DNA of 32,904 bases from a virus (lineage: Duplodnaviria; Heunggongvirae; Uroviricota; Caudoviricetes), in the IMG/VR virus record IMGVR_UViG_2778261269_000003, positions 1 through 32,904 of that record; one strand, 5' to 3'. Shown here one piece after another: positions 28,672 through 31,203 of this stretch (its first letter is position 1; each line of letters opens with the position of its first letter). The position numbers were made by a program, and so were the translations under genes. The notes beneath the pieces are model-generated. The model saw only the letters and a list, made by a program, of their open reading frames with translations, was not told where the DNA came from and did no database searches.

Positions 28672-29751
28672 TTAATTGTAAGGGGTTTCTCTTTCCATTT
28701 CTAAAACTATGGCTCTGAAATTTCTATTAAACTCATAACCAGGTTTATTATGTAACTCTGCATTTATGCAGTCTCCTAGAAGAGAACTTCTGATTCTAGC
28801 ACCATACCCATTGGTATGATAAGCAGAGTCCATAAATAATTTTCCTCCAAGATTAGACGCGCTTGGTGCGCAAATAACGTTAATACCAGCAACAGAAAGC
28901 AAACCCTTAAGTTTCATTAACGACTGCATGGTTTGTCCATTATCAGTGTCAAACCCCGGATTTCGCATCGTAACAGGCCATGTAATAAATAATTTCCCAC
29001 CTTTATTAGAAACAAAATTATTTATTTCCTTGAGTGTTGTATATGTATGTTCAGATATTTTAGGAATGTCTGAGTTATATGTAAATGTGCCATTATACAC
29101 AGAATCGTAAACAGTTTTACCGTCAATAAAAACATTGATGTCACCGTTTTTATTTAGACTTTTATAACTGTACCCATTATATTCACCATTGGTAGAGTTA
29201 AGATGATTGATGACATCACTCAACGGTGAAACCAGGCCTTTATCTTCAGCATTAAATCCTTCAACTAACCTTTTGGGGCTAACATTCATCATGAACTTTA
29301 TACGGTTATAAATGTTGATGCTTGATAGGTAATCCTGGCCCCACCCCAATATATTATTAACAAACCAATCAGTTGGTGCTTCCGTACGTGTGTAGTACTC
29401 ATACTCAAGCGGCATTACAACGATATCACCATTTTTAAAATGCTTTTTTAATTGATAAAAATGATAGTTTATATCTAGCTCTGCATGCGTTGCAATATTT
29501 ACAACTGGAAGTGATGTTTTATGGGAAATAATTTCACTATTTATAGAAAATAAGCTATTCGACCCGCTAGAGATTATTATTTTTTTCCCATTTATCCTGT
29601 CAGCGGCAACGCCTTTAAAATCAATTACGTTCTTTAGCCACCACTCACCTACAACCTGCTTTCCTTCCTGCATTTTGAAAGCATAAATAAACGTCCCAGC
29701 GGCAAATGCAAGTATTGCTAAGAATATAGAGAAGCTGAATTTATAATTCAC
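28672..29751 (-). CDS. DltD/AlgJ-like membrane-anchored partner protein of MBOAT acyltransferase
   Basis: 359 aa with N-terminal TM anchor, C-terminal FMDSAYHTNGYG resembling the DltD/AlgJ D..H..G.G motif; GTG start 9 nt after MBOAT stop with AAGGG RBS. Confidence 0.55.
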   Translation of the reverse strand: MNYKFSFSIFLAILAFAAGTFIYAFKMQEGKQVVGEWWLKNVIDFKGVAADRINGKKIIISSGSNSLFSINSEIISHKTSLPVVNIATHAELDINYHFYQLKKHFKNGDIVVMPLEYEYYTRTEAPTDWFVNNILGWGQDYLSSINIYNRIKFMMNVSPKRLVEGFNAEDKGLVSPLSDVINHLNSTNGEYNGYSYKSLNKNGDINVFIDGKTVYDSVYNGTFTYNSDIPKISEHTYTTLKEINNFVSNKGGKLFITWPVTMRNPGFDTDNGQTMQSLMKLKGLLSVAGINVICAPSASNLGGKLFMDSAYHTNGYGARIRSSLLGDCINAELHNKPGYEFNRNFRAIVLEMERETPYN

Positions 29752-29760
29752 TGTTCGCCC

Positions 29761-31203
29761 TTAAAAATTGAAGTAAATAAAGGATCCGGGAGCCGCCCCA
29801 CCCAAGGAAGCAGTCACTGCAATGCAAACGCCAAAGGCACACAGGCATGGAGCAAGCAGATTCCACGCTATACCACTCTTATGTTCTTTGGTCATCTCCA
29901 TGAAAACATTAGAATTTACATTAATTAAGCACGTCATAATGGCAATGGCGCAAACAGCTATCATATAGAAACCACCTTTCGATGCCTCATAGAGGAATGA
30001 GTCCGCAAAAGGTTGAGCATATTTAAATCCGGAAACCAAAGAATCGTAACCAGCAAACATTTTCTTTAGCAAACTAAAAGCATCATTTAAGTTATCTGTT
30101 CTGAAGAAAATCCAGGTGATATTCACGTAATTGAATGTTATAAACCAACCTACAACGCTCGGCATGCGAAAGCCATTTTGTGACCAATACCTGTGAATGA
30201 CAAGCCCAGCCCCGTGTAAAGCGCCCCACGCCAAAAAATTCCATCCAGCTCCATGCCAGAAACCGCCGATCAAAAACGTCAAAAACAGGTTTAGATATGT
30301 GCGTAATACACCATTTCGGTTTCCGCCAAGAGGAATGTAGACATAATTCCTGAGCCACGTGGAAAGGGTAATGTGCCAGCGTCTCCAGAAATCTTGAAGG
30401 TCTGTTGCTATGTATGGTGAATTGAAGTTGATAGGCAGCACAACGCCAAACAGAAGGGCCGAGCCAATCGCCATGTCAGTATATCCGGAGAAATCAAAGT
30501 ATAACTGGATACTGTATGAGAGGCTGGTTATCCATGCCTCCAAAGCACCAAGGGCTGAGATATTTGCATAACCTTGATCCGCTATAGAGCCAAAATATGA
30601 AGACAAGACAACTTTTTTGAATATTCCGACACTAAATATAAATACTGCGGGAACGAAATATTTCCCGAAATAATTATCCCTTGAGTTGAGTTGGTTTGTA
30701 ATTACATCATAATTTGTTATCGGGCCAGAGATGAGCTTAGGGAAAAACAAAATGTAGCAGCAATAATTTAATATTGAAATGTTAGATATCTGCTTTCTAT
30801 ACAAACTAACTGATAAAGAAATCTGCTGAAATGTATAGAAGCTTATGGCTAACGGCGCAATAACATTCATGTGGCCTATATTTAGGTTGAAAATACTAGA
30901 TATGTTACTTGCAAAGAAGTTGCAGTATTTAAAATAACCAAGAGATGCCACGTTAAATATAACTGATAATGCTACATATAATTTTGTCTTTTCAGATTTC
31001 ATCATTGTTAATATTGCGTAGTTTATCAGCATCGATATCAACAAAAGAGGCAAGAAATTAAATGTGAAAAAAGTATAGAAATACAGGCTAGCGCAACAAA
31101 TCCACACCTTGGAGAGAGCAATGTTAAATTTTTTCAGGAAAAGGAATATCAATACCACCAAAGGTAAAAACATTACAGAATATTCTAACGAGTTAAATAA
31201 CAT
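29761..31203 (-). CDS. MBOAT-family membrane-bound O-acyltransferase (AlgI/DltB/PatA-like)
   Basis: 480 aa polytopic membrane protein with the MBOAT His motif [25 protein letters not shown]; very AT-rich. Confidence 0.8.
   Translation of the reverse strand: [480 protein letters not shown]

Follow-up and report, generated by a model that had tools for sequence, protein, structure and literature searches.

The 32,904-nucleotide stretch of DNA analysed here over its whole length (the window; positions 1 to 32,904 of IMG/VR record IMGVR_UViG_2778261269_000003) comes from a lambdoid temperate siphovirus. Its O/P/Q-lysis region shares 92-95% DNA identity with HK140 and lambda, and the structural genes are ~85% identical to those of Enterobacter phages. 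Between the tail spike gene and the integrase gene lies a cassette of two reverse-strand genes, which encode a membrane O-acyltransferase of the MBOAT family and a membrane-anchored partner protein (Table 1). The lambdoid character of the phage and the location of the gene pair between tail fibre or spike and integrase had both been proposed in an original prediction, made from the sequence without database searches, and both were borne out; the two open reading frames are intact and have exactly the ends given there. As argued below, the cassette is probably a two-gene prophage moron that O-acylates, and most likely O-acetylates, a surface polysaccharide of the host, with the O-antigen recognised by the adjacent spike as the most probable acceptor.

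As judged by its sequence, the product of the upstream gene clearly belongs to the MBOAT superfamily. The Pfam MBOAT model (PF03062) matched residues 40-362 with E 2.7e-35 and 122.7 bits (cut-off 27), MBOAT_2 also matched (E 4.4e-07), and the signature motif from which membership had been predicted is present and includes His277. This residue lies in an RWH motif (codon 30373-30375), and His317 in an FWHG motif (codon 30253-30255). In comparisons with the DltB structures 8jem and 6bug (E ~1e-30), both histidines were conserved, His317 within the segment GGFWHGAGW. Several hydrophobic segments detected in a crude Kyte-Doolittle scan, together with the alignment to the membrane core of DltB, indicate that the protein is polytopic. 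Homologues carry the database label 'probable alginate O-acetylase'. The NCBIfam DltB model (TIGR04091) gave 168.9 bits against an equivalog cut-off of 375, and hence the protein is not a DltB equivalog.

The only hydrophobic segment of the partner, residues 7-25, is modelled as a helix spanning residues 3-27, in agreement with the N-terminal membrane anchor predicted for it. No Pfam, NCBIfam or PHROG model matched this protein, and profile scans of 27 close and 62 diverse relatives gave isolated sub-threshold or chance matches, for example to DUF1574 and ALGX in single members. DltD (PF04914) matched neither the partner nor any of these 27 and 62 relatives, even with E limits relaxed to 1 or 0.01, and no match to ALGX/AlgX_N/AlgJ (PF16822) or DHHW was found in the partner or its 27 close relatives; in a set of 63 distant relatives, one gave a sub-threshold ALGX match (E 0.0027). 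Profile searches of PDB sequences with two alignments of the partner family returned chance matches only, and PatB (7tjb) was absent at E up to 10. All database names of the relatives are 'hypothetical' or 'uncharacterised'. On the results of these searches, the family, with ~2000 sequence clusters, is without a Pfam, NCBIfam or PHROG model, and it is therefore missed by annotation pipelines.

A relationship was, however, apparent at the level of the predicted fold. The AlphaFold model of the partner, built with 28 sequences, was confident, with a predicted local distance difference test (pLDDT) value of 91.1 and a predicted template modelling (pTM) score of 0.89, and shows the three-layer α/β/α arrangement of an SGNH fold, DltD-like in its extent and topology. 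The top Foldseek match was DltD (6o93, E 1.3e-4), with a TM-score of only ~0.35, and the BFVD viral structure library yielded generic esterases only (TM ~0.3). Thus, the 'DltD/AlgJ-like' motif of the original prediction holds for fold and topology, but has no counterpart in a DltD, ALGX or DHHW profile match. Across 63 diverse relatives, S64, D109 and H312 are the only invariant residues. S64, in a GSN motif (codon 29560-29562), follows strand 58-60 and opens helix 64-69; H312, in a YHTN motif (codon 28816-28818), stands ahead of the last long helix, 315-334. These are the canonical positions of SGNH blocks I and V, which makes Ser64 the candidate nucleophile and His312 the candidate base of the modelled enzyme. 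Homologues in Campylobacterota (P0013, P0018, P0019, P0020 and P0025; e.g. L006 673-2133) are longer, at ~490 amino acids, and carry a C-terminal extension of ~120 residues that matches Pfam T2SSG (type II secretion pseudopilin G-like) in the five members, with a best E of 6.6e-05.

The DltB/DltD system of Firmicutes, which D-alanylates teichoic acid, is a structural relative of both proteins, and aminoacyl (D-alanyl) transfer in place of acetylation was weighed. It is hardly credible and was rejected. The MBOAT falls far under the DltB equivalog cut-off, the partner lies outside the Pfam DltD model and resembles DltD with TM-scores of only ~0.35, and no dltA, dltC or dltX-like gene is found next to the cassette or among the neighbour families reported for related loci. 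In addition, teichoic acid is absent from the Gram-negative host.

The genomic company of the partner family was more informative as to function. An exhaustive HMMER search for the family recovered 2047 cluster representatives at E <=1e-3 and 114 at E <=1e-30. In a scan of one genome per species, based on the less divergent of the two family alignments, a partner relative was found in 106 species belonging to Campylobacterota (including Helicobacter), Desulfobacterota, Gammaproteobacteria, Bacteroidota, Cyanobacteria, Firmicutes and other groups. Eighty loci were kept, of which 7 were cut at a contig end. An MBOAT gene lies immediately upstream on the same strand in 59 of the 73 evaluable loci, and elsewhere in the locus in a further 6, while none was present within 5 kb in the remaining 8. 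Nine IMG/VR contigs include a partner relative, and all 8 that retain the upstream region have an MBOAT gene directly upstream, the ninth being cut at the contig end. Among 127 co-oriented neighbours of chromosomal pairs, the commonest families were glycosyltransferases GT1/GT4 (13) and GT2 (9), NAD-dependent epimerases/dehydratases (7) and GDP-mannose dehydratase (6), followed by methyltransferases (4), DegT aminotransferases (3) and Wzx-type Polysacc_synt proteins (3). An Anaerovibrio pair, for example, sits within a cluster for GDP-sugar synthesis and Wza-type export. The partner family is therefore a dedicated partner of MBOAT proteins, often with genes for polysaccharide biosynthesis alongside.

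This dedicated pairing and the nature of the neighbours favour acylation of a glycan and count against acetylation of peptidoglycan. The latter would follow the example of PatA/PatB in Neisseria and Campylobacter, which has the same minimal architecture of an MBOAT and a periplasmic SGNH transferase, and O-acetylation of N-acetylmuramic acid at the C6 hydroxyl would shield a lysogen against lysozymes and against the lytic transglycosylases that superinfecting phages bring. The partner, though, has no sequence similarity to PatB, the cassette has no Ape1 companion and no ape1-like gene was seen in the related loci examined, and the context is one of polysaccharide clusters and phage tail genes. 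Peptidoglycan O-acetylation was accordingly considered improbable and rejected.

The remaining features of the locus are listed in Table 1. The MBOAT and partner genes do not overlap and are separated by a 9-nt spacer. The TAA stop codon of the MBOAT gene overlaps a Shine-Dalgarno-like TAAGGG, placing AAGGG 6 nt before the GTG start of the partner gene, and a second AAGGG is located 7 nt 5' of the MBOAT ATG. The translational coupling that had been predicted is thus plausible from the sequence, though not in the form of overlapping genes. A scan of the whole region for promoters and terminators gave counts not above those in shuffled sequences. The 34-nt gap between the convergent spike and partner genes is filled by a hairpin with an RNA folding energy of -26 kcal/mol (z-score -7.3). 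As no U tract follows it on either strand, the hairpin is not a canonical intrinsic terminator, and its sequence suggests that it is probably a bidirectional transcription stop or an RNA-stabilising element.

Table 1. Features of the cassette and its surroundings in the window.
Feature	Coordinates	Strand	Basis
MBOAT-family membrane O-acyltransferase gene, AlgI/PatA/DltB type; 480 aa, ATG start	29761-31203	-	Pfam
Partner gene; 359 aa, GTG start; membrane anchor and predicted periplasmic SGNH-fold domain of DltD-like topology	28672-29751	-	
Gene junction, TAAGGGCGAACA	29752-29763	-	Read from sequence
Upstream leader/putative promoter region of the cassette	31204-31288	-	Alignment; conserved in the closest relatives L010, L011 and L004
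Hairpin, GTGTGGGAGG-TCTC-CCTCCCACAC; perfect 10-bp G+C-rich stem	28642-28665		
Tail spike gene, convergent with the cassette; 791 aa	26262-28637	+	Pfam Tail_spike_N and Lipase_GDSL_2
Tyrosine integrase gene, bounding the moron region	31750-32904	-	Pfam Phage_integrase, Phage_int_M and Arm-DNA-bind_3
umuD'-like (Peptidase_S24) pseudogene between integrase and MBOAT genes; frameshifted, N-terminally degraded	31289-31674	+	
Candidate attachment (att) core, 40 bp	31648-31687		Match to L002 and L003

The G+C content is ~0.55 in the structural genes as against 0.36-0.39 across the cassette. At third codon positions (GC3), it is 0.31 in the partner gene, 0.35 in the distal two-thirds of the tail spike gene and 0.42 in the MBOAT gene, compared with 0.59 in the tail genes. 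Given the low GC3 that they share, the distal spike, partner and MBOAT segments look like one imported, foreign island. The 40-bp candidate att core is 87.5% identical to sequences in two related loci (L002 and L003), which represent a P22-like prophage remnant beside a dacC-like/FUSC/GyrI-like chromosomal flank, the same flank as that of an Enterobacter hormaechei prophage (L010). The match would imply a common integration site for unrelated phages with MBOAT cassettes. ARAGORN found no tRNA gene in the window, and the att site is thus not derived from a tRNA gene within it. In the E. hormaechei prophage, the place of the umuD'-like pseudogene is occupied by an intact homologue of 128 aa (MGFPSPAQDYVEQRI...; L010 9370-9756). 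Upstream of the tail spike gene, the first ~90 residues of the open reading frame for a gpJ-like central tail fibre (915 aa; 23458-26205, + strand) are implausible and overlap the preceding gene, and translation probably starts at the internal Met of MALVEISNFPG...

Within Enterobacterales, the gene pair is rare and phage-associated. It was present in 2 of 5426 complete E. coli genomes, and Ewingella and Cedecea were the only carriers among the species representatives of this order. The pair adjoins receptor-binding genes in four virion architectures, namely lambda-like phages with a GDSL tail spike (L015-L018, L010, L004), a related siphovirus whose spike shares the N-terminus but differs in the distal domain (L019), P22-like phages in which the tail spike is of the Head_binding type (L002, L003, L023), and Mu/P2-like myoviruses, where the neighbours are genes for tail fibre, fibre assembly and baseplate (L020-L022). 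The placement in these temperate phages is between the tail spike or fibre and att/int (or the lysis genes), in an arrangement that sets transcription of the pair apart from the late operon, and is the same in the Pseudomonas phage JBD44. An intact pair also persists in decayed prophages of Ewingella americana (L014/L025), Yokenella (L013), E. coli YZ22MPE6 (L001) and Cedecea davisae (L026). The remnants have lost the rest of the phage and are bordered by chromosomal genes or by insertion elements (IS1 or IS66), and 3 of the 4 retain an intact GDSL spike; in the Cedecea remnant, the tail spike is truncated and the pair intact. In the Yokenella regensburgei island, a gene for an Acyl_transf_3 (AT3) protein (L013 7571-8719, - strand) was found ~1.3 kb upstream of the MBOAT cassette, and the two types of acyltransferase are thus neighbours there.

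Pairwise ratios of non-synonymous to synonymous substitution (dN/dS) were 0.07-0.12 for the MBOAT gene and 0.09-0.15 for the partner gene over divergences up to dS >2, indicating purifying selection. Persistence in remnants together with purifying selection is a hallmark of a selected lysogenic-conversion moron. The opposite view is that the cassette is passenger DNA, a low-GC insertion in decay that travels with the tail spike and has no current function. It would account for the low-GC island, for the fact that no promoter was recognised and for the local decay represented by the adjacent umuD'-like pseudogene. It would also account for one close relative, L015 (IMGVR_UViG_2681813233_000012), which is 99-100% identical to the window across the gpJ-like, tail spike and partner genes and in which the MBOAT gene (1881-3315) has a frameshift near residue 172, due to a sequencing error or to recent inactivation of the cassette. 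However, both open reading frames in the window are intact, the candidate catalytic residues are invariant, dN/dS is low even at high divergence, and the pair was kept in several prophage remnants where other phage genes, including the Cedecea spike, have decayed. A passenger without function is for these reasons very improbable and was rejected.

The tail spike convergent with the cassette is itself informative. Pfam Tail_spike_N (E 1.2e-17) and Lipase_GDSL_2 (E 7.5e-13) matched the protein, and its SGNH esterase blocks are complete (GDS 483-485, GVND 545-548 and DNIH 655-658). Among the solved tail spikes that its N-terminus matches is G7C gp63.1. This protein removes acetyl groups from O-antigen, and SGNH fibres of Klebsiella prophages are active esterases (PMC13123978). 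Like these proteins, the spike of the window combines a Tail_spike_N adaptor with a complete SGNH domain, and it is, on sequence grounds, probably a deacylating receptor-binding protein of the G7C gp63.1 kind. The likeness concerns the neighbouring gene and not the cassette, and a linkage between such spikes and an MBOAT cassette is unmentioned in that literature.

Comparison with related loci over positions 26700-29751 revealed a mosaic. Two loci (L001 and L016) match the window at 95% in the partner and 96-97% in the distal spike, with 84% in the MBOAT (L001; cut off in L016) and 69-79% in the spike N-terminus. In three others (L010, L004 and L017), the values are 62-63% for the partner and 48-75% for the distal spike, with 87-90% for the MBOAT and 86-89% for the spike N-terminus. 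The partner and the distal spike therefore co-vary, whereas the MBOAT and the N-terminal adaptor of the spike follow a different pattern, which indicates that recombination moves the distal spike and the partner as a block. The pattern fits a role of the partner as an acceptor-specific subunit matched to the glycan that the spike recognises, though simple physical adjacency could give the same co-variation. A bolder proposal, offered tentatively and rather unlikely as it stands, is that the partner represents a class of SGNH acyltransferases of the periplasm, widespread but so far unrecognised, which serve as acceptor-specificity subunits of MBOAT systems, and that in enterobacterial phages it forms a co-inherited 'writer-eraser' receptor module with the esterase spike. 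If so, the prophage would put an acyl mark on the O-antigen, which the SGNH esterase of the virion would remove or depend on, and exchange of the block of distal spike and partner would re-programme host range and exclusion together.

The mechanism suggested for the cassette as an O-acylation moron is as follows. In a lysogen expressing both genes, a cytoplasmic donor, presumably acetyl-CoA, would supply an acyl group to the polytopic MBOAT, which would pass it across the inner membrane via a tunnel containing His317. The membrane-anchored periplasmic SGNH partner would accept the group on Ser64, with His312 as the base, and hand it on to a hydroxyl group on a sugar of the polysaccharide, lipid-linked or nascent. 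The modified surface would change the serotype and block adsorption of this and similar phages, resulting in superinfection exclusion and in protection of released progeny. The reading as a lysogenic-conversion acylation cassette, put forward in the original prediction, is well supported by context and fold, whereas the novelty claimed for it was overstated, as discussed below.

The same biochemistry might be directed at a different extracytoplasmic glycan, such as capsule/K-antigen, colanic acid, enterobacterial common antigen, cellulose or poly-N-acetylglucosamine, the benefit being a change in biofilm, immune recognition or phage receptors unrelated to O-antigen. Known bacterial MBOAT systems act on exopolysaccharides, e.g. 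alginate and cellulose (PMC9558356), and SGNH-domain receptor-binding proteins of Klebsiella prophages are associated with capsule type (PMC13123978). Moreover, the census of neighbouring genes cannot separate O-antigen clusters from those for capsule or exopolysaccharide. On the other hand, the closest functional precedent, JBD44, is reported to be an O-antigen system, and G7C gp63.1, the N-terminal domain of which matches the spike of the window, acts on O-antigen. The likely hosts (Enterobacter, E. coli and Ewingella) are typed mainly by O-antigen. Another acceptor is thus possible, and clearly less probable than O-antigen.

Several observations weigh against O-acylation of the O-antigen by the cassette. 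Its function is read here from sequence, predicted fold and genomic context, and the acceptor could be capsule, enterobacterial common antigen or another glycan. In the searches described above, the sequence of the partner was linked to no acyltransferase that has been characterised. Many proteins with an SGNH fold are pure esterases, and the DxxH acid typical of the fold is not conserved in the partner, where D308 is at position -4 and not -3 relative to the histidine and is frequently replaced by N or E in relatives. A consensus scan of the leader region (31204-31288) found no sigma-70 match, and the frameshifted MBOAT of L015, if not a sequencing error, shows the cassette to be dispensable for the phage. 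Finally, the acetylation attributed to JBD44 is a second-hand statement, made in a preprint via a reference. O-acylation of O-antigen nevertheless remains the most probable reading.

The phage JBD44 provides the nearest parallel. Its MBOAT, gp41, is 46% identical to that of the cassette over 393 aa (E 5e-125) and is followed by gp40 (372 aa), both genes converging on the tail spike gene gp39. In a preprint, gp40-41 are stated to acetylate the O-antigen of serotype O10 (Taylor et al., bioRxiv 10.1101/2024.03.05.583538). The same study reports that deletion of gp40-41 lowers free phage ~10^4-fold, the 'anti-Kronos' effect. The position beside a tail spike is thus the same in both phages, and the function reported there, O-antigen acetylation protecting free progeny, is the one proposed for the cassette. 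The second proteins differ. JBD44 gp40 is of the AlgX/AlgJ type (Pfam ALGX, E 6.7e-13) with the histidine of its DTHW motif in the middle of the sequence, whereas the partner lacks an ALGX match and has its Ser near the N-terminus and its His near the C-terminus. Homology between gp40 and the partner family found no support, as hhalign gave a probability of 0.4% and aligned only a short His motif. The host of JBD44 is Pseudomonas and the flanking gene encodes an endolysin, in contrast to Enterobacterales and an integrase/att flank in the case of the cassette.

More broadly, tblastn identified MBOATs in 50 phage records; at least 10 Pseudomonas phage records and 37 faecal phage contigs encode them. 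These matches and the precedent of JBD44 gp40-41 run counter to the earlier supposition that phage seroconversion acetyltransferases belong to the AT3 family. No match to the cassette was found by megablast in 50,697 phage records, nor to the partner by tblastn in the same set, and hence no phage with this partner has been deposited among these records. The claim of an undescribed system was therefore correct only in part. A two-gene MBOAT cassette for O-antigen acetylation beside a phage tail spike is an already known kind, while a description of the partner family or of the enterobacterial version was not found. What is new is the unannotated family of MBOAT partners and its linkage, as a block, to an esterase tail spike.

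Among chromosomal systems, those for acetylation of alginate (AlgI/AlgJ/AlgF/AlgX) and cellulose (WssH/WssI) have in common with the cassette an AlgI-like MBOAT and an extracytoplasmic SGNH-like transferase, but they include four components with AlgX_N-type partners, and no AlgF or AlgX relatives are present at the cassette. The AT3 acetyltransferases of phages and their relatives (Sf6 Oac, D3 Oac, Salmonella OafA, and the OafB/GtrC family II) occupy the same niche between spike and att/int and have the same proposed outcome. In enzymes of the OafA/B type, an acyl-translocating membrane domain is joined to an SGNH domain in the periplasm (PMC7448272, PMC9558356). The membrane component of the AT3 systems belongs to PF01757 and that of the cassette to PF03062, and the SGNH domain, fused in OafA/B, is a separate protein in the cassette. 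O-acetylation of Gram-negative O-antigens and capsules has been attributed almost entirely to AT3 proteins, with the use of MBOATs in bacteria described as limited (PMC9558356, a 2022 review). The locus studied here and its relatives suggest instead that glycan acylation by phage-borne MBOAT cassettes recurs, and that it does so in Enterobacterales and Pseudomonas alike. For O-antigens and capsules, O-acetylation determines the serotype, the vaccine epitopes and the host range of phages. The tight linkage of the cassette to the spike offers a tractable system in which to study how phages pair recognition of a receptor with its masking.

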